From Candidatus Nanoarchaeia archaeon (lineage in GTDB: Archaea > Nanobdellota > Nanobdellia > SCGC-AAA011-G17 > DATDVL01): 64,000 nt of DNA. Each line of letters starts with the position of its first letter. Position 1 is the stretch's first letter. A program made the position numbers and the translations under genes. Location of the stretch: NCBI GenBank assembly GCA_035289925.1, contig DATDVR010000008.1, forward strand, positions 849-64,848, read 5' to 3'. Below the pieces are notes generated by a model. The model was not told the origin of the DNA. It saw only the letters and a list, made by a program, of their open reading frames with translations, and ran no database searches. Positions 14,232 to 49,718 of the stretch are shown here, in pieces.

Positions 14232-14242
14232 TTTTATTCCTC

Positions 14243-15504: not shown

Positions 15505-15513
15505 TTTTTCCTC

Positions 15514-30977: not shown

Positions 30978-33900
30978 TTATTGGCAAACCTCAGTAGCTA
31001 TAACATCATCTACTTCTGGAGCTAAGCTTAAATTAATTGTTTCCATGAATAACTTATACTGCAGGTAGGTATTGTTTGCAATGTTTGAAGTTATGGCAGC
31101 AGGAGAAGATGTATAATTTCCTATGAAGCTTTCTCCAGAGCAGCTTAAATCATCACAGGTTCTTAATTGCAGGCTTGCCTTTGTATAGCCTGCCTTGTAA
31201 AGTTCATAAATCTCATTGTTTGACAAAGACCTTTGCCATATCCCTATCTCATCCAGAGTTCCATCAAGGAAAATATCTCCAGTAGCATCCAAAAAGTCAT
31301 ATCCCAATGTTATTGCAGAAGGATTGTCACATATCTGCTGGGTTGTGGTGTTTGACTGAGCAACATTATTGATGAAGAGTTGTCCAAGGCTGTTTTCCAC
31401 CCTATAAACTAGATGATACCATTGGTTAGAATTGACTGTCAAATCAGAGTATTTTTGGGCTGATACAGTATTACATGATTGCCTAAATGCAAATTTATTA
31501 AGCACATTGTCATAGTAGACTTTCCAGCCATCTTCTGAGTTAAAACTTAAGTCCCTTATTATTCCATATCTATCTGAAAGAGTGTCAAAATTAACCCATA
31601 AGGAGACTGTGAAGTTGTTGCTTAAGTTCAAGTTTGATGCTGTTATGTTTAATATGTCGCTTGAGTTGAAGTTAAATGCTCCATATAGCTTGCCATTATT
31701 AATAAATGCTGGGCAGTTTGGACTGATGCAGACTGCATTATATCCATTGCCAGTATGATCATAAACAAATGTAGTGTTCTCTCCAAAGCTTGCATTATTG
31801 TTCAAATGTAAAAGCATAGCAAGGTTAGAGTTGTTATAATTTCCAATTTCCCAGGAATTGTTTAAGAAACTAGACCAATAAACTTTGCTCCAGATAGTGT
31901 TGTTTTGGATATGGCCAAATACCTTGCTTGTGTAATCTCCATTAGGGTAAGACAAGTTAAGCTGGTTGTTATAGATAGTGGATATTTCGCTTGCTGTTAA
32001 GCTTCTATTAAACATAAACAACTCGTCCATCTCTCCGTCAAATAAATTTGCTCCGCCGGCTGTTGAAGAGCCAATGAACAAGTTTCCAGTTCCAGAAGCT
32101 ATATTTCCAGCGCCTGTCGGGCAGGTATTATTGTTCTTTCCATTCCAATAAACTTTCAAATTACCCCCTTCTTTAACGCAAGAAATATGATTCCAGCTTC
32201 CAGCTGTTGTATAGCCAGAAGGCAAAGTGGTATCACAAAGCTTATTTACTCCAGCAACCCTCACCATGCATCTATATTGGTCTATTGCAGATTCCAGCCT
32301 TATATGATAAGCATTAACAGTGCCGCTGTGTTTGTTTAGAACATATTTGTCTCCTGCTGCAGTAAGCTCAAAATCAGGGTTAATCCAAGAGCCGAAGCTG
32401 ATGTTGCCGCCAACATACCTTATCTTTCCAAATTCATTGATTGTTAAAACATCCCCAATTCCATCAAAGTCTCTTGATTTATCTATTTTAGCAGTATTTG
32501 TAACAGAAGGACAGCTAGGAGGGCTACAGGTTGCATTGTCAAATCCAGCGTAATTCTTAACTAAAGTTGTATTTTCACCTTCAGAAGATAAATTGTTGAA
32601 ATGCAATAAAACTGCCAGTTCATTCAAGCTGACTAAATTAGAGTTTATTTCTAATAGACTTTTATTAAGCATTAATATTCCAGAAGCATTTGCTATAGTC
32701 TGATTATAGGTTCCTAAATCCCAGTCTGATTTGTTTGTTGTGTTGATTAGATTTTCGCAAACTGCTGCGCTAGAAGTTACATAATAAGCTTCAAAATTAG
32801 ACAAGTTTAAAGTTCCATTTGTGTCTGAGCTGAATTTAAGGGTTATATTGCAATATCCTTGAGCATCTGCAACACAATTATCGATTGCACTTTGCAATGT
32901 AGATTCGTAATTTTCAATATATTCGCTGCCTGAAAGGTAACCTGTTCTGTTCCATACATTAGTATTTTCAACATACATTTTTAAGTTTGAAACTGTAGTT
33001 CTTATTGTAACATTAGAAGAGCTGACTTCAGTTCCGTTTGTTAATCCATCGCTAGGCATGATTGTACAATACCATTTGTCATTTAAGCTTAAGTTTCCTT
33101 TTGCCAGAGTTTCATAATTTAAATTTTGATTAACACCATTTTTAAACCACTTATATGTAGATCCTTTTTCTGAATAATTAAATATTGAATGATAGGTGTA
33201 ATTACATAATAAATCATCGCCTAAATTAGGGATAGATGGTAACACAGAAACATTACCAACTGAGGTAAGATCAATTCCTGCAATTAAAGTTAGAGTTACA
33301 TTTAAGCTTGGATAATATTCAGGAGTTGCTGTTTCTTTTGAATGAACGTTAAAGTGGGGACTATTAAAGTTCTCTCGCAAATCCATTAAGAAAGTGATTG
33401 CAGGGTCACCAGCTTTACAAGAAGAATTAACAGCCTGTGAAACTACTAGTGAAAATGGAGCATTGTTGGATGTTGCACAGATGCTTGTGAAGTTCACAAT
33501 GTTTTTATCTGGCGTAAAAATGTTACTATAGGTCAATGTTTCTTCTCTCCAGGTGATATTGGTGGCATTCCAAACTCTGTATGTAACAGAACAATTATTC
33601 AAATGAGAAACTTTATGCAAAGTTAGGATAGCATTGTTTAGGTTGTAAAGTGAACAATCTACAGAAGAGATATCAAATCTAAAAGTAGAATTAACTATAT
33701 CAGTCTGCATATGGTAAGTTTCAATAACGCTGGCGTTGGCGCAGTAAGTTGTATCAGGAAGTGTATTTTGGACACAAGTATCATCTAATACCTCAGAATC
33801 TGGTTCTTTCAGCTCTATGGTTGTTGAATCAGGACCTACATGAATAACATCTCCAAATTTAGCATCTAAAGTTAGAGTCAAAATTTTGTCTTTAGTATCT

Positions 33901-34349
33901 ATGCTATAGTAATCTAATTTCTTTATATATTTATCAAATTGTTTTTTTGTAAAGTTGAATGAAGTTTCATTTTGCGATACAATGCTTATTGGATATTTAT
34001 CAAAAGACTTAAAATTTTTTAATGAGTCAAAATTATCTTTTGCGTCTGAAGTTAAAGCAACCTCAACTTTTATGGAGGTATAATTATAATCCAAGCATAC
34101 AGCATCAGTAACACCATCTGATTTAACAATGCATTTAACTGGAGAATTTTTCAGAGATTCAGCAGACTCAATAGTTTTCCAACCATTATCATTAACAAAT
34201 CTTATTCCACCATATAGCTCATAGTTAAGCAAGTTGCCATCTTTGGTCATTTTGCTATTGTAAGAATAAGTCTGAGAATTATCTATAGCGTAGCTTATTG
34301 AATTAATTAAACTAAATACCAATATCCAAATAAATATTTTCTTAATCAA
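30978..34349 (-). CDS. giant secreted surface protein with multiple LamG-like lectin domains
   Basis: Has a signal peptide (IFIWILVFSLINSISYA). Two clear LamG_3 motifs are present, FDGEMDELFMFNRSLTASEISTIY and LDGTLDEIGIWQRSLSNNEIYELY. It is sequon-rich and overlaps the upstream gene by 4 nt. Confidence 0.7.
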   Translation of the reverse strand: MIKKIFIWILVFSLINSISYAIDNSQTYSYNSKMTKDGNLLNYELYGGIRFVNDNGWKTIESAESLKNSPVKCIVKSDGVTDAVCLDYNYTSIKVEVALTSDAKDNFDSLKNFKSFDKYPISIVSQNETSFNFTKKQFDKYIKKLDYYSIDTKDKILTLTLDAKFGDVIHVGPDSTTIELKEPDSEVLDDTCVQNTLPDTTYCANASVIETYHMQTDIVNSTFRFDISSVDCSLYNLNNAILTLHKVSHLNNCSVTYRVWNATNITWREETLTYSNIFTPDKNIVNFTSICATSNNAPFSLVVSQAVNSSCKAGDPAITFLMDLRENFNSPHFNVHSKETATPEYYPSLNVTLTLIAGIDLTSVGNVSVLPSIPNLGDDLLCNYTYHSIFNYSEKGSTYKWFKNGVNQNLNYETLAKGNLSLNDKWYCTIMPSDGLTNGTEVSSSNVTIRTTVSNLKMYVENTNVWNRTGYLSGSEYIENYESTLQSAIDNCVADAQGYCNITLKFSSDTNGTLNLSNFEAYYVTSSAAVCENLINTTNKSDWDLGTYNQTIANASGILMLNKSLLEINSNLVSLNELAVLLHFNNLSSEGENTTLVKNYAGFDNATCSPPSCPSVTNTAKIDKSRDFDGIGDVLTINEFGKIRYVGGNISFGSWINPDFELTAAGDKYVLNKHSGTVNAYHIRLESAIDQYRCMVRVAGVNKLCDTTLPSGYTTAGSWNHISCVKEGGNLKVYWNGKNNNTCPTGAGNIASGTGNLFIGSSTAGGANLFDGEMDELFMFNRSLTASEISTIYNNQLNLSYPNGDYTSKVFGHIQNNTIWSKVYWSSFLNNSWEIGNYNNSNLAMLLHLNNNASFGENTTFVYDHTGNGYNAVCISPNCPAFINNGKLYGAFNFNSSDILNITASNLNLSNNFTVSLWVNFDTLSDRYGIIRDLSFNSEDGWKVYYDNVLNKFAFRQSCNTVSAQKYSDLTVNSNQWYHLVYRVENSLGQLFINNVAQSNTTTQQICDNPSAITLGYDFLDATGDIFLDGTLDEIGIWQRSLSNNEIYELYKAGYTKASLQLRTCDDLSCSGESFIGNYTSSPAAITSNIANNTYLQYKLFMETINLSLAPEVDDVIATEVCQ

Positions 34350-37075
34350 TTTGAACCACTCACCTTTATTCTTGAATAAAGTATCGTTGCATTCTTTGGT
34401 AGTCTTACTTGGACTGTCTTATTTTCAGGAGTACTAGTATAAATCAAAGAAGCTTTATTGCCTGTTGTAAAGTTTTCCTGCCTTGTTGAGTTTTCATTAA
34501 ATATTTTTAAGTCAATATATTCAAAATCAGATAGATTGCCATCGCTTACTTCAACTAAAATTGAGTAATTTCCAGTATCATTTGAAGTTGTCTGCCATAA
34601 ACCAGAACCATTAAATTCACCACCATAAGAGTATGTTAAGCTATCTCCATCCTGATCAAATGCTGTCAATTGACCACTTTTATTTATATTAATTAATTCG
34701 CCAGCTATTCCTGTTAAGTTATCCAAAGGAGCTATAACTGGTTGTTTATTTCCGCTTGAAATCAAAGTCAGTAAGGTAATTGGAGATCCTTGTCTTGTTA
34801 CAGCAAGTTCAGCTTTTCTGTCATTGTCAATGTCTCCTATTATTGGAGAATTACCTAAGGTCCCAAGAACACGGTAAGCTTGGTCTAATGTTCCGTCATT
34901 ATTTAGGATTATAACCCCTGTAGTGTTTGCTGCTAGAATATTATAATTACCATCTCCATCTATGTCTGCTATATTTGGTGCTGTTGTTTCAGCAATTGGT
35001 GAATAATCATAGTTCCATTCTTGAGAATCTGTTTTAGGGTCATAAGCCCTAAGGCTTGCAGTGCTAGAACCGCAACTTGTTTCTCCATTAATAACAATTT
35101 CTGGATTTTCGTCAGTATCAAGATTTGCAATAGATGGAGTAACTCTAGGCTCTAAGCTAGAAACAGTTATTTCTGAATTGGAATTGTCGGCAATACATGC
35201 TGTGGCATTTTTTATAATAATTTTATCGAAACAACTGCCAACATTGCAGCTGCAAGTGTGCGTTGCAAATACAATCTCATAATCATTGTCATAATCTATA
35301 TCATAAATTACTGGAGAACCACCAGTTTTTCCTGCACTTACATTACACGATTGACTTAAAATTCCAGAATTATAATTATATACCCTTAAACCATAAAATT
35401 CAGTTATTGCTATCTCTAAATCTCCATCTTCATCTAAATCAGCGATGGCTGGAGCTGAAACCCCCCCTCCATTACTTCCTATGCTAATATTTTTCACTAA
35501 AGTTGCGCTATTCCCGTTGTCATGCAAAATATATAAGTCACCTGGCCAAGTATAATCAACCTCTATTCCATCAATAAAAATTATCTCTTTTACCCCATTG
35601 TTATCCAAGTCTTCAACAGCAGTATATCCTAAATTACCTATCCTGTTGCTCATAGTCATTGTGCTAAATTTAGCAGGAACAGTATAAGTCCAAGCACGAG
35701 TTCCATCAGAATTAAGTTTATATAAGGTACCATTCTCTAAACCAAAGAAGATTTCTAACTTTTTATCACCATATGTATCTGCTAAAGTTGGTGGAGCTAT
35801 TAAAGCGGCGCCTTCAGCCATAAAAGGATTTTTCCACTTTTCACGTGTCTTTGGATTAGGATTAAGAAAAGTCTGACTATCCTTTCCAACAGCATAAATA
35901 TATTTATCCGTATTTTCAGAATTAACAATAATAACCTCCATTCCTTCATTACCATCTATATCTCCCATGGCATATCTGGCTATTGAGCCACTATCCTGCG
36001 GTACATTTTTTACTACAAAGTCCAAATCATTTTTAGAGTTAGTTGAATCAGCATCGCCTTTTAATAATGTAAAGCCTGCTCTTTTATTATCATGATGGTA
36101 TGTTGGCCAAGAATAACTGTTTACAGTATCTAAAAACAATCTGTATAAACCAGCTGTTGCTTTCATTGCATGAGGTATTGTAGCATTTGCTTCCTTGCTT
36201 ACTGTATTAGAAGTTAAACCAACACTGGTATTAACAAAATCGCTACAGGAAGTAAAACCAAAATCTCTCCAAAGATTTGTAGAGCCAGTTCCGCTACAAG
36301 CCCAGTTTTGTGGTGTATCATCTAATTCTCTATATATTGTATTTCCATCTACATCATCACTAGCCCAATACTGAGTTTTTTGTGCTGTATACCAAAACAA
36401 TCTAAATAAATAATCTAATTTATCAGGCTCTACTTTTGACCAATCAAAACTAGAAATTAAATTTTCATAATAATAAGGATTAAAGTTTTTGCCAGTCCAG
36501 TTGTATTGAGATTTTAAAGTATTGAAATTATCACCTGTATAATCTTCTAAAATTGAAGAATCTACAAGCGGAACATGTGGATCTAAAAGTACGTGCGAGG
36601 GTTGAGCAGCATCTTCCAATAAATGAGCAACTCTCCCTAGCCAATAGTAAGATTCATTTATATTACCTTTCAAATAATTGTCAATTATTTTTGTTTTCCA
36701 GAATCCATTGGCTCTTGCCCAACTACTTTGAAATGTTTGACCCAACCCAATATCATAATCACCATAATCTGGAGAGTCTGGTTGCCAGAAATGTCTTAGA
36801 AATCTACCTTCTATTATTGGGAGATCTTCCTCTCTAGAACCATCAATAATGTCGTCACCTTGATTATAACCATTATCTGAAGAAGTTCTAGTAATAGAAT
36901 TAGTAGAATGATTTTTAATCTCAAACGGAATTTGTTCCCAAACAGCTTTTGATTCATTAGTTAAATATTGGTGCACTTCTTCGCCAGATTCAACATTATA
37001 AGCATTTACAATAGGAAAAATCAAAATAAGTAAAACTACAATAAAAAGCAAATTAAAGATTCTTTTATTTTTCAT
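34346..37075 (-). CDS. secreted zinc phospholipase-C-like domain fused to FG-GAP/VCBS beta-propeller repeats
   Basis: The start is taken at the ATG at 37075 (MKNKRIFNLLFIVVLLILIFPIVNA); the ORF track lists a TTG at 37102. The motif WLGRVAHLLEDAAQPSHV matches the H-x3-D-x5-H zinc site of the PLC/alpha-toxin family. There are many D.D.DG repeats (DIDGDGNYNI, ADLDEDGDLEI, GDIDNDRKAEL). Confidence 0.6.
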   Translation of the reverse strand: MKNKRIFNLLFIVVLLILIFPIVNAYNVESGEEVHQYLTNESKAVWEQIPFEIKNHSTNSITRTSSDNGYNQGDDIIDGSREEDLPIIEGRFLRHFWQPDSPDYGDYDIGLGQTFQSSWARANGFWKTKIIDNYLKGNINESYYWLGRVAHLLEDAAQPSHVLLDPHVPLVDSSILEDYTGDNFNTLKSQYNWTGKNFNPYYYENLISSFDWSKVEPDKLDYLFRLFWYTAQKTQYWASDDVDGNTIYRELDDTPQNWACSGTGSTNLWRDFGFTSCSDFVNTSVGLTSNTVSKEANATIPHAMKATAGLYRLFLDTVNSYSWPTYHHDNKRAGFTLLKGDADSTNSKNDLDFVVKNVPQDSGSIARYAMGDIDGNEGMEVIIVNSENTDKYIYAVGKDSQTFLNPNPKTREKWKNPFMAEGAALIAPPTLADTYGDKKLEIFFGLENGTLYKLNSDGTRAWTYTVPAKFSTMTMSNRIGNLGYTAVEDLDNNGVKEIIFIDGIEVDYTWPGDLYILHDNGNSATLVKNISIGSNGGGVSAPAIADLDEDGDLEIAITEFYGLRVYNYNSGILSQSCNVSAGKTGGSPVIYDIDYDNDYEIVFATHTCSCNVGSCFDKIIIKNATACIADNSNSEITVSSLEPRVTPSIANLDTDENPEIVINGETSCGSSTASLRAYDPKTDSQEWNYDYSPIAETTAPNIADIDGDGNYNILAANTTGVIILNNDGTLDQAYRVLGTLGNSPIIGDIDNDRKAELAVTRQGSPITLLTLISSGNKQPVIAPLDNLTGIAGELININKSGQLTAFDQDGDSLTYSYGGEFNGSGLWQTTSNDTGNYSILVEVSDGNLSDFEYIDLKIFNENSTRQENFTTGNKASLIYTSTPENKTVQVRLPKNATILYSRIKVSGSN

Positions 37076-37373
37076 TTTTAAATAACGCATATAAAAATCC
37101 AATTATTCCTCCAATTATTCCATAAAATATAGGATTATAGATAAATCCATAAAAGATAACAAAAAATCCACAGGATTCACCTATTCCAAGTCTAAGTAAA
37201 TTACAAAGCGCTTCATCAGGTACTTTCGAAAATATAGTATAAACTATCACAGGCAATCCTAATTTTTCTCCGAAAAGTACAAAAAATGGAACTTTAAATA
37301 ATCCAAATATCATTCCAATAAATAAACCTTTACCCCAAATAGGGAGTTTTTTCCATCTATCTTTAAGCTTCAC
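37065..37373 (-). CDS. small polytopic membrane protein (GESC motif)
   Basis: 102 aa and hydrophobic. It contains GIGESCGFFVIFY, which resembles GGGGESCWSVFIY in the 37538-37951 product. Its stop lies 11 nt inside the PLC-like gene. Confidence 0.55.
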   Translation of the reverse strand: MKLKDRWKKLPIWGKGLFIGMIFGLFKVPFFVLFGEKLGLPVIVYTIFSKVPDEALCNLLRLGIGESCGFFVIFYGFIYNPIFYGIIGGIIGFLYALFKNEK

Positions 37374-37548
37374 TTTTTAAACCTCCATTTATTTCATTAG
37401 GAGTCTGCTCCCACACTTTTTGGGATTCATTGGTTAGATACTGATGCACTTCCTCACCAGATTCCACAGTATAAGCAAGAGTACTATTTATAATAAATAA
37501 AAGATATCCAATTGTAATTAACAATAATATTCTTTTTTTATTTAACAT
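37363..37548 (-). pseudogene. orphan N-terminal fragment of a PLC-like paralog
   Basis: Translates MLNKKRILLLITIGYLLFIINSTLAYTVESGEEVHQYLTNESQKVWEQTPNEINGG.... This parallels the first ~60 aa of the 34346-37075 product (NAYNVESGEEVHQYLTNESKAVWEQIPFEI) and then stops. It has the same 11-nt overlap with the preceding TM gene. Confidence 0.55.
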
Positions 37549-37951
37549 TTTTATTTTGTATGTAAGCTCCAATTAATAAACCGTATAATCCTAAAGTTAT
37601 TATACTTAAATAAATAAAAACACTCCAGCAACTTTCACCCCCTCCTCCACAACCAATTATATGTCCTATTAATCCGCTTAGAGGGAAAAAAATCAATAAT
37701 AATAAAACCCCAGTTCCATAACTAATAAATCCAAGGAAGGATCCTATGATTAAACCTAAAACAGCACCAAATTTATTTTTCAACAAAAATTCTTTTATAG
37801 ATAAAAATAATAACAATAATCCAATTATTAAAATTATAAATATTGGTATTTGAGTAGATAAATTTCTTTGTGTAGTCCCAGCAAAAAAATAGCTTAATAT
37901 ATCAGCAAACAATATTACAATAAGGGATATCCATAAAAGTTTATTTTTCAT
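37538..37951 (-). CDS. small polytopic membrane protein (GESC motif)
   Basis: 137 aa with about 4 TM segments. It contains GCGGGGESCWSVFIY. Confidence 0.55.
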   Translation of the reverse strand: MKNKLLWISLIVILFADILSYFFAGTTQRNLSTQIPIFIILIIGLLLLFLSIKEFLLKNKFGAVLGLIIGSFLGFISYGTGVLLLLIFFPLSGLIGHIIGCGGGGESCWSVFIYLSIITLGLYGLLIGAYIQNKNVK

Positions 37952-37965
37952 TTTTAGTTCTCCAA

Positions 37966-38394
37966 TTATTCTTTAACAACCTCCATTTCAAAAGAATCAA
38001 AAGCGCGATGATAATCCTCACAGTAATCTAAATCAGGGCATCTATTAAATCTTAAATTAGAAATAACAACTTTGTGATTATTATCTAAATCAACTTTATT
38101 ATTCTCATCTTCTTTATCAGCATAAATTTTAGGATATAGTACCCCATTAATTCTAAACCAGCAGGCTTTCTCTTGTCTATCACAATACAACAAATCTATA
38201 AGATAATTCTTACCATCTAGTTTTATAGTGCCAATTTCTTTATTTGAATTGCTTATTCTTAATTCTTGTTTATAAGGGAGTTTACTATCGATAGAATTAA
38301 ATTTTAGATTAGCAAAGCTTGGGTTATATTTAATGAAATAATCATAAGCAAATACATCATCAACAATCCTTCTATTTCCAACCAATGGAGACAA
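37966..38394 (-). CDS. hypothetical secreted protein; the N-terminus is probably longer than the ORF call
   Basis: The open frame continues upstream to 38580 and encodes a signal-peptide-like KQFNLVALFLLALAIIVVAQS. That stretch has no ATG, GTG or TTG. Confidence 0.5.
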   Translation of the reverse strand: MSPLVGNRRIVDDVFAYDYFIKYNPSFANLKFNSIDSKLPYKQELRISNSNKEIGTIKLDGKNYLIDLLYCDRQEKACWFRINGVLYPKIYADKEDENNKVDLDNNHKVVISNLRFNRCPDLDYCEDYHRAFDSFEMEVVKE

Positions 38395-39501: not shown

Positions 39502-39921
39502 CTAATAAGTTATCTCTATCTTTATTCTTCCATTTGAAGTCCTGCTTATTGTTCTTCCCTGCCATCCTTCAGTATAATCTATAAACAAGTCAGATTCTAA
39601 TTTAGTTCCAGCTTCCCCATTGTTGCAGTCCTCAAAAACAAGCTTTTCTTCTTCTCCTTTAAACAGCCCATTTTTTGCTTCAACATTTTTATTGCACGAA
39701 TATAGATATACAGAAAAATGGCTTAGGTATGATTTATCAACGTTTGCAGTCCTGTAATTCTTGACTAAAATTTCAACCCCATTTTCAGTCGCTCTTATCC
39801 TGTCGCATCTTACTTCTGGTATGCCTAAAGAGCATCTTGTAGGTATGATTGCTTCAAAGAAACCAAAAGAAAAAAAAGCCATAACAAAAAGAAAAATAAA
39901 GATGAGATATAGTGGCCTCAT
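39502..39921 (-). CDS. pilin-domain paralog with a degenerate N-terminal signal
   Basis: Has a hydrophobic N-terminus without the Q..E motif. The C-terminal domain has the same Cys-pair and GEEEKL.F..C layout as the neighbouring pilins. It is the last gene of the pilin array. Confidence 0.5.
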   Translation of the reverse strand: MRPLYLIFIFLFVMAFFSFGFFEAIIPTRCSLGIPEVRCDRIRATENGVEILVKNYRTANVDKSYLSHFSVYLYSCNKNVEAKNGLFKGEEEKLVFEDCNNGEAGTKLESDLFIDYTEGWQGRTISRTSNGRIKIEITY

Positions 39922-39923
39922 AA

Positions 39924-40394
39924 TTACTCTATTGTTCCTACTATCTGCCCATTCTTTGTGCGGGTAAGTGCATTAGCGCCAGATCCTTCTGTCCAGTTTA
40001 TCTGGAGATTTCCCTTGAATCTGTCTCCAGCTGCACCAGTATCTGTGCCTAACGCACAAGTAATTGTTAGTTTTATAGTTTCACCATCTGAAAACGTTGC
40101 GTCTGTTGCTGCAGGACTTGCATCACAGGTAGAGCCAGAATTCTGCAAACCAACACTGAAAGAAGTCAATGAAATTCCCATTCCATTCTGGATTACCATC
40201 TCAATTGTGCCTGTTGCAATCTTGAAATTGCTGCACCCTACTCCAGGGAAATATACGCAGCTGCTTGGCAGGAATCTTGATGGATTCAATACTCCAAAGT
40301 AAGCCAAAGCGCCTATTGCGATAAGAACTACTAAAATAGCCCAGCCATAGGTCATTAAAAACTCTAAAGCTGCTTGTCCTCTTTTGTTATTCAT
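39924..40394 (-). CDS. archaeal type IV pilin (class III signal peptide)
   Basis: The N-terminus is MNNKRGQAALEFLMTYGWAILVVLIAIGALAYFGVLNP. An AGGTGA Shine-Dalgarno sequence lies 6 nt upstream of the ATG. Confidence 0.85.
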   Translation of the reverse strand: MNNKRGQAALEFLMTYGWAILVVLIAIGALAYFGVLNPSRFLPSSCVYFPGVGCSNFKIATGTIEMVIQNGMGISLTSFSVGLQNSGSTCDASPAATDATFSDGETIKLTITCALGTDTGAAGDRFKGNLQINWTEGSGANALTRTKNGQIVGTIE

Positions 40395-40415
40395 GATTTA
40401 TCACCTTTATTGTTT

Positions 40416-40871
40416 TTATTCGTATTTTGTGGCAACCTTGCCTGTTTCTTTGTGAGTTATTGCAACTCCCACTTCTGAATATTGTAATACCAAATCTTCG
40501 CTGTAGGAATTTCCTTCTGTTCCTGTTGTCAAGCCTGAAAAGGCACAGCTTAGCTGCTTCCCAGATTTCCAGGTTGTTCCGTTCCATCCAACGCCGGTGC
40601 ATGTTCCAGCAAGGCTTTCAATTGTAAGGGTGAAATTCCCTAAGTCTTTTCCTATTCCGTTTCTAATTATAAATGTTCCTGTTCCGTCAGACTTTACAAT
40701 AAAATCATCACAGTTAAATCCAGGTGCCAAGATGCATGATTTTGGCAATATCCCTTTTGGATTCAATACACCGAAATAAGCTAAAGCTCCAATTGCGATT
40801 AAAACTACTAAAATAGCCCAGCCATAGGTCATTAAAAACTCTAAAGCTGCTTGTCCTTTTTTGTTATTCAT
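40416..40871 (-). CDS. archaeal type IV pilin (class III signal peptide)
   Basis: The N-terminus is MNNKKGQAALEFLMTYGWAILVVLIAIGALAYFGVLNP. It has the same Shine-Dalgarno sequence and spacing. Confidence 0.85.
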   Translation of the reverse strand: MNNKKGQAALEFLMTYGWAILVVLIAIGALAYFGVLNPKGILPKSCILAPGFNCDDFIVKSDGTGTFIIRNGIGKDLGNFTLTIESLAGTCTGVGWNGTTWKSGKQLSCAFSGLTTGTEGNSYSEDLVLQYSEVGVAITHKETGKVATKYE

Positions 40872-40882
40872 GATTTATCACC

Positions 40883-41335
40883 TTATTCATATTTTGCGTT
40901 AAATTTGCCTGTTTCTTTGTGAACCAAAGTGCTTCCTCTCTCAGTATACTGCAATATCAAATCAGCACTTAAAACATCTCCAATTGCTCCTGTTGTCAAG
41001 CCTGTAAAGTCGCAGTCAAGCTGAGTTCCATCAACCCAGTTTGTTCCGTTCCAATTTACTCCATTGCATGATCCTGTAGCGCTTGCCAATGTTATTGTCC
41101 AGTTATTTAAAGTCTTTCCAAAGCCGTTTCTTATTATCACTGTTGAAGTTCCATCAGTATTTAATATAAAGTCATCACATGAAAAGCCAGGTGCAATTAT
41201 GCAGGTGTCTGGCAATGCTCTTTTTGGATTCAATACACCGAAATAAGCCAAAGCGCCTATTGCGATAAGAACAACAAGGATTGCCCAGCCATAAGTCATT
41301 AAAAACTCTAAAGCTGCTTGTCCTCTTTTACTCAT
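40883..41335 (-). CDS. archaeal type IV pilin (class III signal peptide)
   Basis: The start is taken at the ATG at 41335 (MSKRGQAALEFLMTYGWAILVVLIAIGALAYFGVLNP). The TTG start in the ORF track (41350) lies inside the GAGGTG Shine-Dalgarno sequence. Confidence 0.85.
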   Translation of the reverse strand: MSKRGQAALEFLMTYGWAILVVLIAIGALAYFGVLNPKRALPDTCIIAPGFSCDDFILNTDGTSTVIIRNGFGKTLNNWTITLASATGSCNGVNWNGTNWVDGTQLDCDFTGLTTGAIGDVLSADLILQYTERGSTLVHKETGKFNAKYE

Positions 41336-41484
41336 TAATGAACACCTCAATTTAATATATTTATATCCAATTACTGCTATATAAACTTAACTGTTGTTTT
41401 TCATAATTTTGGCTATTTTATTAATTTATTACCACTCAAAAAAGATTAACAAGTAATATAAGATTTTTAAATCAGCTTACTAGC
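41336..41484. promoter_or_regulatory. divergent promoter region between the pilin array and the pilus assembly operon
   Basis: Minus-strand TTTATATA (41378-41385) lies about 43 nt upstream of the ATG at 41335, with a GAGGTG Shine-Dalgarno sequence between them. Plus-strand TAATATAA (41454-41461) lies about 23 nt upstream of the ATG at 41485, which suggests a leaderless transcript. Confidence 0.4.
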
Positions 41485-44013: not shown

Positions 44014-45165
44014 ATGGCGAAAATAAAGTGGTTTGACATAGTCTTCTGGCTCGGCGTATTGGTTGTAGCGCTTGCATTGTTGTTGATGGACAACCCTTCA
44101 ATAGTCATAGTAGGCATCATCTTCGAAATTTTAGGCACTCTAGGTATAGTAATGGTCAGGAGAAAAGACAAGCCAAAGCCTGAAGAGCCAGAGAAAAAGA
44201 AGAAAGATTTGAAGCCAAAGCCATACAACAAGGAAGTGGCTGAAAAAGAACGTCCAAAGAAAGAGCTAGTAATTGGAACAACATCAGAATTCTACAAAAA
44301 AAACATAATGATTTTTGTTGCTGCAGTTGTTGTGATTCTTGGATTCATAATCTACCAGCTTGTCAACATTTCTGGCAAATCAATAATATATATTCTTCTG
44401 CTTATATTCAATTTTGTAATCCTGGTTTTATTGTTTGTTTTTGGCACTTACTTGATTAAAAGGAAAAAAGAGGCAGAGCTTGACAACAAGCCTTTGATAG
44501 AGACAGAAAAAGAACTGAATGCAAACAAGAAAGTGAGCAAGTTCGTGGTTTTAAGGCACTATGTCAGGAAGGCCTTGGAAAAAGATTTCTCAAGAGAGCA
44601 AATTGTTAAGGCAGCTTTGGCAGCTGGCTGGCCAGTAAGATTCATAGAAAAAGCCTACAAGAGGGAAATCAAGAGAAGCGATATAATCAGCACTTTAATC
44701 AAGGGCTATGAGACAAAGATATTGAAGCGCTATATCAAGACTGCAATGGAAGACGGATTTAAAAAAGACGAGATAATTGCCGCTGCAAAAAATGCAGGCT
44801 GGCCTGATAAAATCATTGAAAACTCTTACGATGCATTAGAAGGAAAAGAGCTTGTCTTCAGAAAAGAAAAAGAAATAGGATTGGAGCAAGAGTTGACGGA
44901 TGAAGAAGAGGAAAAACAGACAAAAAACATCCTGAAAGTAACAGCAAAGTTAATAAAGCATGAAACAGATTTTGATAGGTTGTATAATTTGGTTAAAAAG
45001 AGAGGTGCTATGAAGTTGTCTGAGGTTTCTAAAGAATTTAATATCAGTAAGAAGCAGGCAGAGGAATGGGGACAAATTCTTGAGGATCACGAGCTTATTG
45101 AATTGTATTATCCAGTAATAGGAGAGCCAGAACTAAGATGGAAGAAATCGAAAGCTACAGGATAA
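44014..45165 (+). CDS. membrane protein with two GWP repeats and a C-terminal wHTH-like domain (pilus locus accessory protein)
   Basis: Has N-terminal TM helices. There is an internal duplication, HYVRKALEKDFSREQIVKAALAAGWPVRFIEKAY versus RYIKTAMEDGFKKDEIIAAAKNAGWPDKIIENSY. The C-terminus reads KLSEVSKEFNISKKQAEEWGQILEDHELIELYYP. The ORF track lists a GTG start at 43996. Confidence 0.55.
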   Translation: MAKIKWFDIVFWLGVLVVALALLLMDNPSIVIVGIIFEILGTLGIVMVRRKDKPKPEEPEKKKKDLKPKPYNKEVAEKERPKKELVIGTTSEFYKKNIMIFVAAVVVILGFIIYQLVNISGKSIIYILLLIFNFVILVLLFVFGTYLIKRKKEAELDNKPLIETEKELNANKKVSKFVVLRHYVRKALEKDFSREQIVKAALAAGWPVRFIEKAYKREIKRSDIISTLIKGYETKILKRYIKTAMEDGFKKDEIIAAAKNAGWPDKIIENSYDALEGKELVFRKEKEIGLEQELTDEEEEKQTKNILKVTAKLIKHETDFDRLYNLVKKRGAMKLSEVSKEFNISKKQAEEWGQILEDHELIELYYPVIGEPELRWKKSKATG

Positions 45166-46622
45166 AAACAAACGAGCTGGATGTTGAAGTAAGCATCACA
45201 GGTGGCAAAGGAAAATTTAAACAATATCATTTGATAATTCCTTACCTAAACCCTGCTACAGTTGCTTTGCTTGAGCATATCAAGACAAGCTTGATCACGA
45301 ATGTTGCAGTGACATCTTCAGAGTTGCTTGAGCCTAAAATGCTCGAGTCATTGAAGACAAAGTTCAAAGAGCAAGCCCTAGTTCTCTTGAAAAGATCCCT
45401 GCCAAATGCAGATGATGAAACAATAAACTTCCTCCTTTCAGTTTTGATACAGGAAATTCTAGGATTGGACAAGGTAGAATATCTTCTTAATGACGAGTCA
45501 TTGGAAGAAATTGTAATTGTCTCAGCAAAGGAGCCAATACGTGTTTACCATAAAAGGCACGGCTGGCTTATCACAAACCTAAGGATTACAACAGAAGCTC
45601 AAATCCAGAATATAGCAAATATCATAGCAAGAAGGATTGGAAGGCAAGTAACTACATTAAATCCTTTGTTGGACGCTCACTTATTGACAGGAGACAGAGC
45701 GAATGCAGTCTTGTATCCAGTGTCAACAAAAGGAAACACAATCACTATAAGAAAGTTCGCGAGAGACCCATGGACAGTAACAGACTTCATAAGGAACAAC
45801 ACAGTTACTTCAAAGCTGATGTCATTGATATGGATTGCAATACAGTATGAGATGAACATGATTGTCGCTGGAGGCACAGCATCAGGAAAAACTTCTTTGC
45901 TGAACGTCTGCATGCCATTCATCCAGCCAAACCAAAGAATAATTTCAATAGAGGACACAAGAGAAATTGAGCTTCCTAAATTTTTGTATTGGTGCCCTTT
46001 AGTTACAAGAGAGCCTAACGCAGAAGGAAAAGGAGAAGTCTCAATGTTAGATTTATTAGTCAACTCCTTAAGAATGAGGCCAGACAGGATTGTTCTTGGA
46101 GAAATAAGAAAGAAAGACCAGGCGCAAGTTCTTTTCGAAGCAATGCACACAGGTCACTCAGTATACTCAACTATGCACGCAGACTCTCTTCCAGAAACAA
46201 TTTCAAGATTGGTTAATCCACCAATTGATATCCCGGTAAATTTGCTTGACTCTGTAAACTTATGCATGGTAATGTTCAGGGACAGAAGAAAAGGAATAAG
46301 AAGAGCTTACCAATTAGGAGAATTTGTTGTAGGAGAGGAAGAAGGAAGACTAGTAGCAAAGCCAAACTTGATTTACAGGTGGAATCCAACAACAGACAAG
46401 ATGATACAGCACTCAACTTCTGTAAGATTATTTGAAGATCTTACAAGAAGAACAGGAATGTCGCAGCAGGAATTGGACGATGATGTCGCTGAGAAGAAAG
46501 CAATTCTTGACTGGCTTGCAAGAAGAAATATAAGGCACATAACTGAAGTTGGCGAAGTAATAAAAGACTATTATCTTGATCCTGAATCTATCCTTAAGAA
46601 AATTAAGGTAAAAAAGGAATAA
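45138..46622 (+). CDS. type IV pilus/archaellum-family secretion ATPase (ArlI/FlaI, PilB/TadA-like)
   Basis: Carries Walker A (GGTASGKTSLLN), Walker B/Asp box (RPDRIVLGEIR) and a His box (HTGHSVYSTMHA). Confidence 0.9.
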   Translation: MEEIESYRIKTNELDVEVSITGGKGKFKQYHLIIPYLNPATVALLEHIKTSLITNVAVTSSELLEPKMLESLKTKFKEQALVLLKRSLPNADDETINFLLSVLIQEILGLDKVEYLLNDESLEEIVIVSAKEPIRVYHKRHGWLITNLRITTEAQIQNIANIIARRIGRQVTTLNPLLDAHLLTGDRANAVLYPVSTKGNTITIRKFARDPWTVTDFIRNNTVTSKLMSLIWIAIQYEMNMIVAGGTASGKTSLLNVCMPFIQPNQRIISIEDTREIELPKFLYWCPLVTREPNAEGKGEVSMLDLLVNSLRMRPDRIVLGEIRKKDQAQVLFEAMHTGHSVYSTMHADSLPETISRLVNPPIDIPVNLLDSVNLCMVMFRDRRKGIRRAYQLGEFVVGEEEGRLVAKPNLIYRWNPTTDKMIQHSTSVRLFEDLTRRTGMSQQELDDDVAEKKAILDWLARRNIRHITEVGEVIKDYYLDPESILKKIKVKKE

Positions 46623-46623
46623 A

Positions 46624-47505
46624 ATGTTCAATGTACCTTACTCAATAATACCTACAAGAACATTAAAGCAGGCTTCTAAAAAAATATTTTACAGCATTGC
46701 TTCAAAGATGGCAGTCGGCCTGCCAAACTTGCCAATGTATTTAAGGCAGGCTGAAACTGACTTGACTCCTAAGGAATATATAAGCATGTGCATGCTTTCA
46801 TCAACTTTCCTATTTGGTTTTTTCCTGATATTTAGTGTTTTCCTTACAAAAGCAGGGCTTAACTTTTTCCTTGGCTTTATAGTTTCAATGATATTAACAA
46901 TTATTCTTTTCGTCCAGCAGCTCCTGTATCCAAAAACAGCAGCAAACAAAAGAGTTAGGGACATAGAAAAAAATCTTCTGTCAGTATTGCAGAACATTTT
47001 GATACAGATTAATTCTGGAGTGCCTTTGTTCAATGTGATAGTCTCGATAGCAAACAGCAACTACGGCCAGATTTCAAAGGAGTTTGAAATGGCAGTTAGA
47101 GAAATCAACGCTGGAAAGCAGCAGGTTGCAGTTCTCGATGATTTAGCTACAAGAAATCCTTCTGTTAATTTCAGGAGAGCTATCTGGCAGATTACAAACG
47201 GCATAAAGACAGGTTCAGACTTGTCAAGAGTAATAGAGGAAAACATATCAGCTTTAAGCGAACTCCAGTTGATTCAAATCCAGAAATACGGAAGCCAGCT
47301 AAAGCCAATTGCAATGTTCTACTTGTTATTGGCAATAATACTGCCTTCTTTAGGTGCAACTTTCATAATCCTCATGTCTTCATTCATCGCAATGTCTGAA
47401 TTTGGGATAAAAGTAATATTCTGGACTCTTTTTGGGATAGTTTCATTGGTGCAGCTCTTCTTTTTAGGTGTTGTAAAATCAAGGAGGCCAACATTGTTGG
47501 GTTAA
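46624..47505 (+). CDS. pilus platform membrane protein with a single T2SSF domain (TadB/TadC, EpdJ/K-like)
   Basis: T2SSF-like helical segment (LQNILIQINSGVPLFNVIVSIA...REINAGKQQVAVLDDLA) flanked by TM helices. Confidence 0.75.
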   Translation: MFNVPYSIIPTRTLKQASKKIFYSIASKMAVGLPNLPMYLRQAETDLTPKEYISMCMLSSTFLFGFFLIFSVFLTKAGLNFFLGFIVSMILTIILFVQQLLYPKTAANKRVRDIEKNLLSVLQNILIQINSGVPLFNVIVSIANSNYGQISKEFEMAVREINAGKQQVAVLDDLATRNPSVNFRRAIWQITNGIKTGSDLSRVIEENISALSELQLIQIQKYGSQLKPIAMFYLLLAIILPSLGATFIILMSSFIAMSEFGIKVIFWTLFGIVSLVQLFFLGVVKSRRPTLLG

Positions 47506-47506
47506 A

Positions 47507-48478
47507 ATGTACTTACTCCTATCAAAATTATATCCAAAAGGCCTTAAAGAAGGTTACAAGAGGCTTCTTAAAAGTGCTAATATCAACGTGAACCTTGACA
47601 GATTCATAGGCTTTGTTCTTTTTGTAGGTGCAGGCCTTGCATTGGCAATAACTTTCTATCTTGGCAAGTATCTTGATATGCCTCTATGGGTCATCTGGGT
47701 TTTACTCTTCCTTGGAATTGAAACAACTTTGTACATGTGGCTTAATCTAAAGGTAAACAAGAAGATAAAAGAGATAGAGAAAGTATTGCCTGATGCTTTG
47801 CAACTTATGAGCTCTAACTTAAGAGCTGGCTTGACTCCGGACAAGGCTTTCCTTCTTGCTGCAAGGCCGGAATTTGGAGTTTTTAAGGATGAAATAAATC
47901 GTGTAGGAAGAGAGATTACTGTAGGAAAAACTCTTGAGATGTCTTTGATAAATATGAGCCAAAGGATAAACTCTGAAAAGATTGAGAAAGTAGTTCTTCT
48001 TATCATCTCGGGAATAAAGTCAGGTGGAGAGCTTGCAGACTTGCTTGAAGAGACAGCAAGAAACACAAGAAATCAAGACTTGATGGAGCAAAAAATAAAG
48101 TCAAGTGTTTTATCATATGTAATATTCATATTTGCAGCAGTAGCTTTTGGAGCCCCAATACTTTTTGGACTAAGCTCTTTTTTGGTTGAAGTATTGAAGC
48201 AGGTCTTCAGCCAGATTGACATACCAGCGTCTGCAGCTGTGAATATCCCAATCAAAATATCAAAGATTTCAATTTCAACAGATTTTATAGTGACCTATTC
48301 AATAGTAAGCTTGGTGGCAACATCAATATTAAGCTCGTTGCTTATAGGGGGTATAGTCAAGGGCAGAGGCAAGGAAGGATTTAAGTATATACCTATAATG
48401 ATATTGATTACATTGGTAATGTTTTTCACCTGCAGGTCATTGATATCAGGATTGCTTGGAAGTTTGTTTGTATTTTAG
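47507..48478 (+). CDS. pilus platform membrane protein with a single T2SSF domain (TadB/TadC, EpdJ/K-like)
   Basis: T2SSF-like segment (LPDALQLMSSNLRAGLTPDKAF...GKTLEMSLINMSQR) flanked by TM helices. Confidence 0.75.
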   Translation: MYLLLSKLYPKGLKEGYKRLLKSANINVNLDRFIGFVLFVGAGLALAITFYLGKYLDMPLWVIWVLLFLGIETTLYMWLNLKVNKKIKEIEKVLPDALQLMSSNLRAGLTPDKAFLLAARPEFGVFKDEINRVGREITVGKTLEMSLINMSQRINSEKIEKVVLLIISGIKSGGELADLLEETARNTRNQDLMEQKIKSSVLSYVIFIFAAVAFGAPILFGLSSFLVEVLKQVFSQIDIPASAAVNIPIKISKISISTDFIVTYSIVSLVATSILSSLLIGGIVKGRGKEGFKYIPIMILITLVMFFTCRSLISGLLGSLFVF

Positions 48479-48513: not shown

Positions 48514-49203
48514 ATGGAAAGAATACCAACAGGGATAAAAGGTCTTGATGAGCTTATACAGGGCGGATTCAAGAACGGAAGTGTCAATCTTATCACTGGA
48601 GATCCTGGAGCTGGTAAGACTGTTTTTGCACTGCAGTTTTTGTTCGAAGGTTTAAGAAGAGGCGAAGCATGTCTATACGTCACATTTGAGGAAAGGAAAA
48701 AGAAGTTGTACGATGATATGATCGGGTTTGGAATTGATCTGGAAAAATTCGAGAAAGCAGGGTTGTTTGTCTTCTTAGCATATACCCCGGAGCAGGTTAA
48801 AAAATTGCTTGTTGAAGGTGGAGGTACAATAGATGCAATCATTTCAAAGTCAAAGATTAAGAGGCTGGTAATAGACAGCATAACTTCATTTGCTCTTCTT
48901 TATCAGGACAGGCTTTTGCAGAAAGAAGCTGCATTGGAATTGTTTGACTTGATAGAATCATGGGGTTGTACAGCGTTGGTAACTTCCCAAAATACAGTAA
49001 GCGAGGAAAGCACTGTTAATGCTGCATTGGAATTTGAGGTTGACTCAATATTGATTCTTTATCATGTCAGGATCAAAGGAGAAAGGAAAAGAGCTCTTGA
49101 AATACTGAAGATGCGCGGCACTAAGCATCCAAACAAGACTTTTGCAGTCGAGATAGACTCTACAGGAATGAAAATTAATCCAAAAGAGCTTATAGTTTTT
49201 TAA
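48514..49203 (+). CDS. KaiC/RecA-superfamily ATPase (ArlH/FlaH-like)
   Basis: The N-terminus is IPTGIKGLDELIQGGFKNGSVNLITGDPGAGKTVFALQF (Walker A). Walker B is KRLVIDSITSF, and ILKMRGTKHP is also present. Confidence 0.8.
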   Translation: MERIPTGIKGLDELIQGGFKNGSVNLITGDPGAGKTVFALQFLFEGLRRGEACLYVTFEERKKKLYDDMIGFGIDLEKFEKAGLFVFLAYTPEQVKKLLVEGGGTIDAIISKSKIKRLVIDSITSFALLYQDRLLQKEAALELFDLIESWGCTALVTSQNTVSEESTVNAALEFEVDSILILYHVRIKGERKRALEILKMRGTKHPNKTFAVEIDSTGMKINPKELIVF

Positions 49204-49205
49204 AA

Positions 49206-49346
49206 ATGGAAAACCAAAATTATTTAGATGAAAGTAATATGATAGTTATAAATAAAGTTCTTTATGATTATTGTGATAATAGAAGGTTCTGCGATTATTT
49301 CTATGACGCTTATGATATCATTGAATTGGAGATTGTTAGAAAATGA
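49206..49346 (+). CDS. possible small protein (46 aa)
   Basis: Below the size cut-off of the ORF track. It translates MENQNYLDESNMIVINKVLYDYCDNRRFCDYFYDAYDIIELEIVRK. Its stop overlaps the ATG of the next gene (ATGA). Confidence 0.3.
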   Translation: MENQNYLDESNMIVINKVLYDYCDNRRFCDYFYDAYDIIELEIVRK

Positions 49347-49717
49347 ATGACAATCTATCTAAACAAATAAATAAAAAAATATTAATTGCATCTCTAGTTT
49401 ATCTTTTAATTTTTTTAGTATCCACTTTTTTTTATACTATTTATAAATTAGGGATTATTTTTTTCTTAAAAAATATGGTATCTATAATTACTATAGCAAT
49501 TACTTTATCGCCAGTTTATTACTTAATTTCTTGCTCACAGATTTTAATTATAGGATTTTTACTTAAGTTTTTTTATAGAAATAAATATCTTTTGCTTAAT
49601 AAATATTTGAGTTTAAAGAATAAATCATTTAATATTACTTTATTGCTTTTTACTTTTTTTTGGGTTTTAGTAAACTTTTATATTTGGAGTCAAATAAAAT
49701 TCAGAGGTTTCCATTAA
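49343..49717 (+). CDS. small polytopic membrane protein
   Basis: 124 aa with about 4 TM segments. A PLC-like fragment follows 1 nt downstream. Confidence 0.5.
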   Translation: MNDNLSKQINKKILIASLVYLLIFLVSTFFYTIYKLGIIFFLKNMVSIITIAITLSPVYYLISCSQILIIGFLLKFFYRNKYLLLNKYLSLKNKSFNITLLLFTFFWVLVNFYIWSQIKFRGFH

Positions 49718-49718
49718 T

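Follow-up and report, generated by a model that had tools for sequence, protein, structure and literature searches.

Four overlapping genes in a DPANN archaeon

A stretch of 64,000 nucleotides (nt) from a Candidatus Nanoarchaeia archaeon (assembly GCA_035289925.1, contig DATDVR010000008.1, positions 849 to 64,848), referred to here as the window, carries at 34346-37951 four genes that appear to encode a secreted enzyme of the zinc phospholipase C (PLC) fold, a truncated paralog of it and two small membrane proteins (Table 1). These genes, called here W137, the stub, W102 and PLC909, had been proposed in an initial annotation made from the letters alone, and open reading frame (ORF) calls returned the same four co-directional minus-strand genes with exact coordinates. 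All three junctions among them are 11-nt stop/start overlaps (ATGTTAAATAA, GTGAAGCTTAA, ATGAAAAATAA); the two that lead from a membrane-protein gene to a PLC-like gene had been recognized at the outset, and the junction between the stub and W102 is the third of the kind. The GTG start of W102 lies 7 nt past the Shine-Dalgarno sequence GGAGGT. The window has a GC content of ~33%, and the locus belongs to a cell-surface gene island in the low-GC genome of a tiny DPANN archaeon of the symbiotic type. An assembly artefact was ruled out, the same four genes being present in NCBI, JGI, ENA and Logan assemblies on contigs of up to 82 kb. In public databases PLC909 is named "FG-GAP-like repeat-containing protein" and the other three genes are "hypothetical", and a literature search found no paper describing the PLC-like family or the module of membrane protein and PLC. 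Altogether, sequence comparisons and a structure model indicate that PLC909 and its partners are a real, unannotated zinc-PLC-like enzyme in an unusual, conserved gene module.

Table 1. Features of the module and of related cassettes in the window
Feature	Position	Strand	Description
W137	37951-37538	minus	ORF of 137 amino acids (aa); small polytopic membrane protein with loop C-GGGGES-C; holds GCGGGGESCWSVFIY
Stub	37548-37363	minus	ORF of 61 aa from ATG; signal peptide, then YTVESGEEVHQYLTNESQKVWEQ
W102	37373-37065	minus	ORF of 102 aa, GTG start; holds GIGESCGFFVIFY
PLC909	37075-34346	minus	ORF of 909 aa from ATG; mature start YNVESGEEVHQYLTNESKAVWEQ
Sec-type signal peptide of PLC909	37001-37075	minus	Residues 1-25; predicted cleavage between VNA and Y, with Tyr26 as mature N-terminus
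Zinc phospholipase C-fold head (predicted)	36041-37000	minus	Residues 26-345, ~320 aa
FG-GAP-type beta-propeller region	34766-36040	minus	Residues ~346-770, D-x-D-x-DG loops
Immunoglobulin (Ig)-like domain (Big_9-like, residues 776-847) and C-terminal tail	34346-34750	minus	PF17963, E 0.0084, below threshold
FRINGV gene, 4-Cys secreted protein	37966-38394	minus	Third conserved module member, upstream of W137
Decayed second module copy	49206-49916	plus	FRINGV fragment, transmembrane protein, PLC stub
46-aa FRINGV C-terminal fragment	49206-49346	plus	Part of decayed second copy
124-aa protein with three transmembrane segments, ending ...KFRGFH	49343-49717	plus	Similar to L005 TM132 and L017 TM130
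65-aa PLC stub	49719-49916	plus	Part of decayed second copy
W100	13929-14231	minus	100-aa member of the membrane-protein family in the lipase-like cassette; E 4.7e-5 with a seed-only hidden Markov model (HMM), 5e-14 when iterated
W93	15223-15504		In the lipase-like cassette; marginal match to the membrane-protein family, E 0.05 and 0.004

A zinc phospholipase C-like head

The N-terminal head of PLC909 follows a signal peptide whose cleavage site was placed by the A-x-A rule and not computed. Candidate metal ligands in the head are H35, E83/D84, H95, H151, D155, H161, H167 and E177 (precursor numbering, used throughout), of which H151, D155 and H161 lie in AHLLEDAAQPSHV. A Pfam scan of PLC909 gave FG-GAP_3 plus weak propeller and Ig matches, with no PLC threshold reached, and among PLC909, W102, W137 and the FRINGV and lipase-like proteins described below, Pfam and NCBIfam scans returned FG-GAP matches only. 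The relationship becomes visible at the level of the family. Fifty-nine relatives of the head were found, and a profile of 47 sequences matched in the PDB Listeria PlcB (8cqm_A, E 6.5e-10) and Bacillus cereus PC-PLC (1ah7, 2fgn, 1p5x, 2huc and 2ffz, E 3-6e-5), and nothing besides zinc PLCs at E<=10. Moreover, PF00882, the zinc PLC family in which a match had been expected, is the top Pfam family for 24/47 relatives, weakly (best E 1.6e-4), and no other enzyme family recurs.

In the 47-sequence alignment, the ligands H14, H69, H118, D122, H128 and E146 of the B. cereus enzyme align to H35, H95, H151, D155, H161 and E177. The first of these is kept in 43/43 ungapped rows and each of the other five in 47/47, so the zinc-binding spacing H-x3-D-x5-H read initially in H151, D155 and H161 falls on H118, D122 and H128. 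Nearby candidates for the remaining B. cereus ligands, D55 and H142, are E83/D84 (44/46 and 45/46) and H167 (47/47), and every side-chain metal ligand of the zinc-PLC fold appears to have a conserved candidate counterpart in the head family.

An AlphaFold2 model of residues 25-345 reached a predicted local distance difference test score (pLDDT) of 88.7 and a predicted template modelling score (pTM) of 0.88, with low confidence for its first five residues. When it was compared with the PDB by Foldseek, the best 17 matches were all zinc PLCs (alpha-toxins, B. cereus PC-PLC and PlcB), each with a probability of 1.00, at E 8e-5 to 2e-3, with query TM-scores of 0.45-0.52 and target TM-scores of 0.43-0.70. 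The structure model agrees with the PLC family proposed initially. On the basis of the family profile, the PF00882 matches of 24/47 relatives, the model comparison and the conserved ligands, the head most probably belongs to the zinc-PLC family as one of its distant members, a divergent and publicly unannotated branch of the trinuclear-zinc PLC/alpha-toxin fold that lies below Pfam thresholds. PLC909 itself stays under the PF00882 gathering score and is therefore formally outside that Pfam family.

The propeller and Ig-like stalk

FG-GAP-type D.D.DG repeats, which had been read behind the head, were recovered above cut-off: FG-GAP_3 (PF13517) matched PLC909 in four stretches and scored 52.2 bits where 26.9 are required (E 9.4e-14), and a phmmer search of PLC909 against the PDB returned designed propellers only, those called Cake. 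No terminal hydrophobic segment is present in the C-terminal sequence of PLC909, and hence no C-terminal membrane anchor.

The same stalk is found under another head in one locus of the collection examined here (loci are numbered from L001). Residues 323-907 of PLC909 share 39% identity over 608 aa (E 2e-126) with the C-terminal 600 residues of a 926-aa protein of L003 (6057-8837), the first ~320 residues of which are unrelated to PLC and have no Pfam or PDB match. In this locus the PLC head is encoded separately, by a 427-aa gene, and the gene of the 926-aa protein is also preceded by a gene of the small membrane-protein family, the second member in the locus. Since the 926-aa protein combines the stalk of PLC909 with an unrelated head, the architecture appears to be a conserved FG-GAP/Ig stalk bearing exchangeable N-terminal heads, with L003 as the one clear case.

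A family of small Cys-loop membrane proteins

A family HMM was built from 11 small proteins adjoining PLC genes and searched against 6328 ORFs from all loci; all matches at E<1e-3 sit in PLC, FG-GAP or lipase-like cassettes. The consensus has five parts: a basic/Trp N-terminus (K-x2-W-K-K-L-x-Y-W-x-K-G), a Gly-zipper helix, a conserved Pro, a loop of the form Cys ... (G/S)-E-x-Cys, and lastly a second helix (P-x2-Y-x-l-i-G-x-l-i-G) with a basic tail. W102 (E 1e-33) has the basic/Trp N-terminal segment, a C-x10-C loop with GESC, a C-terminal IFYGIIGGIIG helix and the basic tail. W137, which has two additional N-terminal transmembrane helices ahead of the family core, scores E 0.016 with heavy composition bias, below detection. 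The initial annotation had grouped the GESC/Cys membrane proteins as relatives. BLASTP between W102 and W137 gave no significant similarity, but the alignment of the W137 subfamily with the core family by hhalign reached a probability of 96.4% and a score of 56, with the GESC loops in register, against a maximum of 16 in 30 column shuffles and 28 for the reversed alignment. Because the controls are so far below the real score, W102 and W137 are taken to be distant paralogs of one small Cys-loop membrane-protein family, a link visible at the profile level only.

In the loci examined, the family is confined to DPANN archaea. A word-indexed search with W102 found close relatives only, an exhaustive search with W137 found 6 proteins, and a metagenome scan with a narrow W102 alignment found 3 loci (L087, L088 and L089), in which W102 orthologs (42-57% identity) lie directly upstream of PLC genes. 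Orthologs of W137 adjoin PLC genes or stubs in L011, L028 and L087. Two further orthologs of W102 precede decayed enzyme genes: one of 57% identity is followed only by a 43-aa PLC stub (L005), and one of 56% identity by a 121-aa PLC fragment (L024). Between W102 and its orthologs, the ratio of nonsynonymous to synonymous substitution rates (dN/dS) is 0.15-0.30. A strain variant of W102 on a 595-nt ENA contig (P0078) is identical through residue 92 and then ends in ...GFIYGKIK instead of ...GFLYALFKNEK, which suggests a different downstream junction in another population.

Adjacency of membrane-protein and PLC genes

Almost all of the archaeal PLC-like genes examined have as their immediate neighbour a family member or another small polytopic membrane-protein gene, which usually overlaps the PLC start. 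Among the closest archaeal loci, the end of the membrane-family gene overlaps the beginning of a PLC gene or stub by 3-10 nt in L002, L003, L007, L009, L011, L013, L015, L018, L022 and L024, and twice in the window, and other small polytopic membrane-protein genes fill the same slot in L010, L012, L017, L028, L029, L037 and L044. A natural fusion in L001 joins the membrane part to the PLC in a single reading frame, and a family member adjoins the PLC gene on the opposite strand in L007, L009, L016, L021, L023 and L025. Over 20 independent archaeal contigs show the adjacency and no bacterial one does, and about 45 bacterial homolog loci, from the candidate phyla radiation (CPR), Elusimicrobia, Planctomycetota and others, hold no member of the membrane-protein family. 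The expectation that such synteny would be met elsewhere was thus strongly confirmed for DPANN archaea. In two CPR loci, L030 (4581-4904) and L035 (1965-2309), a small gene with three transmembrane segments lies divergently upstream of the PLC homolog and is unrelated to the family by HMM.

Arrays of these genes also occur. Tandem membrane-family genes without an enzyme gene between them were found in L011 and L014. At L005 (3100-5700), three to four different small membrane-protein genes are interleaved with PLC stubs of 69, 38, 71 and 43 aa, and no full-length PLC is present in the 7.7 kb covered at this locus. A longer alternating array of the same kind is carried by contig P0001, with genes of 236, 99, 322, 95, 212, 99, 474 and 91 aa and overlaps of 11 nt and 4 nt; the 236-, 322- and 212-aa products are PLC fragments.

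Two mechanistic explanations of these arrangements were considered and rejected. A programmed frameshift fusing the membrane protein to the PLC would have to accommodate overlaps of 4, 7-8 and 11 nt, which give different relative frames, and termination-reinitiation coupling is simpler. In L007 (4603-4890) and L009 (1970-2266), the membrane-protein gene follows a PLC stub on the opposite strand and is divergent from the next full PLC gene, and its antisense frame is a long spurious Pro/Ile/Lys-rich ORF. An invertible switch for these two genes was discarded, the sole inverted repeat being the 61-nt, 70%-identical 5' region of the membrane-protein paralogs, with no flanking site-like repeat.

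The PLC stub and the history of the duplication

The stub consists of a signal peptide and the first helix of the enzyme, including the first His ligand (PLC HMM positions 3-58). It matches the N-terminus of PLC909 at 24/29 residues (BLASTP E 1e-14), and a Pfam scan of its 61 aa returned nothing. At the DNA level, the stub and PLC909 share a 90-nt direct repeat (36915-37004 and 37388-37477) of only 76% identity with many synonymous differences. The two copies therefore diverged long ago, the duplication of membrane protein and PLC being old and not recent, and recent gene conversion between them was rejected on the same grounds.

Relatives preserve other states of the locus. L087 keeps the order of the window, with a 137-like membrane protein, a 94-aa stub, a 102-like membrane protein and a PLC of at least 814 aa, whereas L088 and L089 have a 644-aa full PLC in place of the stub, followed by a 102-like membrane protein and a PLC of at least 1005 aa. 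In all three, the junction with the downstream membrane-protein gene has the same Shine-Dalgarno sequence, the same start position and the same overlap of 11 nt. Because L088 and L089 keep both PLC copies, L087 has a longer stub and the junction is shared, the tandem duplication with truncation of one copy that the initial annotation had proposed holds, and can be refined: the 61-aa ORF is the remnant of an upstream PLC paralog that underwent an internal deletion, in which both coupled junctions were kept.

Truncated copies of this kind are recurrent, with at least 10 PLC stubs in at least 7 genomes (two in the window, three or four in L005, others in L007, L009, L024, L025, L028 and L087). 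Several end 3-11 codons past a conserved "EIK", and all keep a plausible signal peptide. That they are not dead remnants is a real possibility, although the balance tips somewhat against it; they would then be maintained secreted mini-proteins, translational-coupling relays for the downstream membrane-protein gene or homology handles for cassette exchange. Start, signal-peptide character and open frame are retained by at least 10 stubs in ~33% GC DNA, both junctions are preserved, and the N-terminal segments reach scores with the family model that are on a par with those of intact genes (53.1 bits for the window stub, 51.6 for its intact neighbour). Moreover, between the window and L087 stubs dN is 0.35, equal to that of the adjacent, constrained W102 gene, with saturated synonymous sites, and stub-versus-stub dN/dS ranges over 0.12-0.32. 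Against this, stub lengths vary from 38 to 121 aa, as progressive decay predicts, dS is saturated and the segments compared have only ~30 codons; the truncations may also be independent and recent, with the constraint inherited from full-length ancestors. The conservation of the stubs could reflect selection, whether they act as a mini-protein, as a coupling relay or as a recombination handle, or equally independent recent truncations, and recurrent conserved gene stubs of this kind may be more than debris.

A third module member and a lipase-like cassette

Homologs of the FRINGV gene lie directly upstream of the membrane-protein and PLC genes in L001, L002, L003, L012, L016 and L026; a word-indexed search with the FRINGV protein of the window returned itself only. 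With the PLC-like head and the Cys-loop membrane protein, it makes up three unannotated families that are defined here. In the window the FRINGV gene reaches ~38590, and a signal-anchor segment, KQFNLVALFLLALAIIVVAQS, is in frame yet upstream of the first ATG, GTG or TTG. Either translation begins at a non-canonical codon or the gene has lost its start.

A parallel had been drawn initially with a cassette at 13765-19008 that was taken to pair membrane proteins with lipases. This parallel stood in so far as W100, from that cassette, falls into the same membrane-protein family (Table 1) and so provides a link between the PLC and lipase-like cassettes that is verified at the profile level; the lipase identity itself was not confirmed. 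A 327-aa protein of the cassette is 62% identical to the C-terminus of a 1164-aa protein, and both have a nucleophile-elbow-like GFSNG motif followed by Asp and His in alpha/beta-hydrolase order. Pfam and NCBIfam gave no match for the lipase-like protein, phmmer against the PDB gave nothing meaningful, and an AlphaFold2 model had a pLDDT of 34.8, from an alignment of only three window sequences. Of the general module of membrane protein and lipolytic enzyme suggested at the outset, the shared membrane-protein family remains. Because the same family also precedes a head that is neither PLC nor lipase (L003), the label "small membrane protein plus secreted surface enzyme" fits the module better than the narrower "lipolytic".

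Proposed function and alternative explanations

DPANN archaea do not synthesize lipids and nucleotides themselves and presumably live at the expense of other cells. For the module as a whole, we hold it slightly better than an even bet that PLC909 is a secreted zinc-PLC-fold enzyme on a stalk, with a coupled membrane partner for which immunity is the preferred role. The head would act as a metallo-phosphodiesterase, cutting phospholipid head groups on the membrane of another cell or on scavenged lipid, and the propeller would provide Ca-dependent binding, the role of the C-terminal domain in alpha-toxin. The co-translated membrane protein would be the cognate partner in the producer's own membrane, where it would preferably serve the self-protection of a lipid-auxotrophic DPANN producer.

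Immunity is favoured because the membrane-protein genes stay intact where the enzyme has decayed (W137; three to four genes in L005), are under constraint (dN/dS 0.15-0.30) and form tandem arrays, and because the phosphodiester bond cleaved by a PLC is also held by archaeal ether lipids. Intact membrane-protein genes beside decayed enzymes, together with tandem arrays, would match the pattern of orphan immunity genes, and the layout of the locus resembles that of a toxin-plus-protection cassette. As in polymorphic toxin-immunity systems, the small cognate gene is adjacent, overlapping and conserved in relatives, and orphan small genes accompany enzyme-gene remnants (W137 with the stub; L005; L087; P0001). 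That the Cys/Glu loop might cap the zinc site like a cysteine switch is a guess. A zinc-PLC-fold enzyme on an adhesin-like propeller would be a concrete candidate, missed by public annotation, for how DPANN archaea breach or harvest the membranes of their partners, and its near-constant membrane partner raises the idea that an archaeon may protect itself from its own lipid-attacking enzyme.

Several points weigh against this reading. As a single sequence, PLC909 has no PF00882 match at E<=1, so the profile match expected in the initial annotation stands for the family and fails for the protein itself. The B. cereus ligands D55 and H142 fall in loops that do not align column for column. In known zinc PLCs, the amine and carbonyl of the N-terminal Trp1 ligate zinc once the signal peptide or propeptide has been cut off; in the aligned relatives of PLC909, the residue after the predicted cleavage is Tyr in 33/41 and His in 4/41, not Trp. 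With respect to immunity, the external loop of the membrane proteins is only ~6-12 residues long, and the enzyme may not act on the ether lipids of the archaeon itself, in which case protection would be needless. One membrane-protein family also pairs with at least two, possibly three, unrelated heads, which is odd for immunity by active-site blocking and fits docking or maturation equally well.

Such docking is the main alternative, which we regard as tentative. The small membrane proteins would dock, anchor or mature the secreted enzyme, for example through a complex via the Cys loop or through handling of its signal peptide or disulfides. PLC909 itself lacks a membrane anchor, the membrane-protein family precedes unrelated heads (the 926-aa protein of L003 and the lipase-like genes at 13929-15504), the single frame of L001 is a Rosetta-stone hint of physical association, and the tight start/stop overlaps imply stoichiometric co-expression. 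However, a docking partner would hardly be expected to stay intact and constrained where the enzyme is a stub or absent (W137, L005), to occur in tandem arrays without an intervening enzyme gene (L011, L014) or to lie on the strand opposite to the PLC gene, as it does in several loci.

The identity of the head has its own alternative, which we consider unlikely, namely that it is not a phospholipase but an S1/P1-type nuclease or a general phosphoesterase that scavenges nucleic acids or phosphate for a nucleotide-auxotrophic DPANN cell. The trinuclear zinc site is common to the PLC and P1 families, and neither family reaches its Pfam threshold in PLC909. The first His lies 9 residues from the mature N-terminus, a spacing between that of P1 nuclease (5) and that of B. 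cereus PLC (13), and the nucleases S1, TBN1 and SmNuc1 appear in the Foldseek list, at ranks 18-31. Their scores are much poorer than those of the zinc PLCs (E 0.2-4 and probability <=0.72, against E ~1e-4 and probability 1.0), while the family profile matches PLCs only in the PDB and the recurrent weak Pfam match is PF00882, not the S1-P1 family. The closest matches of the head are thus not nucleases, and an invariant Glu occupies its last ligand position, in agreement with PLCs, whereas P1 has Asp there. Finally, that the gene association and the GESC motif are coincidences to be expected in an AT-rich genome that is dense in genes and full of small hydrophobic ORFs is hardly credible and effectively refuted, for although BLASTP between W102 and W137 is not significant and hydrophobic composition inflates profile scores (bias 10-33 bits), all HMM matches at E<1e-3 among the 6328 ORFs sit in the same kinds of cassette, the shuffle and reversal controls fall far under the real hhalign score, and the adjacency recurs in archaeal contigs and in no bacterial one.

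Comparison with known systems

The zinc PLC family PF00882 (B. cereus PC-PLC, Listeria PlcB, Clostridium perfringens alpha-toxin) shares with PLC909 an all-alpha fold, secretion, an early His, HF(W/Y)xPD, H-x3-D-x5-H with QP-x-H, and a final Glu. As in alpha-toxin, a catalytic N-terminal domain would be followed by a binding C-terminal domain, the binding role of the PLC909 stalk being inferred. In contrast to these enzymes, PLC909 is archaeal, lies below Pfam thresholds and has a longer head with inserted hairpins (~320 versus ~245 residues), a Tyr/His instead of a Trp mature N-terminus and no evident propeptide; its C-terminal part is an FG-GAP propeller with an Ig-like domain, whereas alpha-toxin-type PLCs have a PLAT/C2-like domain. 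The archaeal PLC-like genes also differ from known zinc PLCs in that a small membrane-protein gene almost always lies alongside. S1/P1 nucleases resemble the head in their trinuclear zinc site, helical fold and weak Foldseek matches, and differ from it in the last ligand and in the absence of a profile match.

In terms of gene organization, the closest comparison is with polymorphic toxin/immunity loci with orphan modules, such as the contact-dependent inhibition (CDI) pair cdiA-CT/cdiI, Rhs and the Tle-Tli lipase-immunity pairs of type VI secretion systems (T6SS) (Zhang et al. 2012, PMC3482391). Common to both are the tight linkage of a small cognate gene with a secreted enzyme, arrays of truncated enzyme genes with retained small genes, and different heads on a shared body, of which L003 is the one clear archaeal case. 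The archaeal module, known here from sequence, has a mirrored polarity, with the variable head N-terminal and the small gene usually upstream; its partner is a polytopic membrane protein, one family of which serves unrelated heads, and secretion would be Sec-dependent, with no dedicated injection system. A broader and rather doubtful proposal can be made, in which DPANN archaea would carry mirror-image effector cassettes: interchangeable N-terminal heads (zinc-PLC-like, lipase-like and others) on a common FG-GAP/Ig stalk, each coupled to a fast-evolving member of the Cys-loop membrane-protein family that protects or arms the producer, with the 5' PLC stubs as maintained elements. If true, this would amount to a membrane-attack and lipid-harvesting toolkit of lipid-auxotrophic episymbionts.

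Precedents for parts of the module exist. Cinquedea is an archaeal secreted bactericidal phospholipase, an alpha/beta-hydrolase of the phospholipase A1 (PLA1) type encoded as a single-gene unit without a partner, and its authors argue that ether lipids make self-immunity unnecessary (bioRxiv 10.64898/2026.06.10.730825). It shows an archaeon secreting a membrane-lipid hydrolase against other cells; a PLC, unlike cinquedea, attacks the phosphodiester bond, which is present in archaeal lipids too. In halocin C8/HalI, an archaeal immunity moiety is encoded N-terminal to the toxin (discussed in bioRxiv 10.64898/2026.07.27.741052); HalI is unrelated in sequence. In Pseudomonas aeruginosa, the plcHR genes encode a haemolytic PLC with overlapping accessory genes (PMC2673038); as in the archaeal module, gene overlap there goes with co-expression of a secreted PLC and a small accessory protein. 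PlcH, however, is of a different phosphoesterase superfamily, and PlcR is a soluble chaperone encoded downstream, with no membrane protein involved.

Decayed module copy and neighbouring genes

A decayed second copy of the module is present on the plus strand of the window (Table 1). It directly follows a type IV filament assembly set, made up of a T2SSE ATPase (45138-46622), two T2SSF genes (46624-48478) and a KaiC-like ATPase (48514-49203).

Downstream of the four-gene locus, the stop of PLC909 overlaps by 4 nt the next gene (30978-34349, minus strand), which encodes a 1123-aa protein with two Laminin_G_3 (LamG) domains (E 8.5e-34). In L008, L012 and L013, the PLC stop is likewise overlapped by genes for large secreted Cys-containing proteins. 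Just upstream, in the same gene string, several proteins of 139-156 aa are encoded at 39502-41350 (minus strand); they have no Pfam match, and one of them carries an archaeal class III (pilin-like) signal, QAALEFLMTYGWAILVV.

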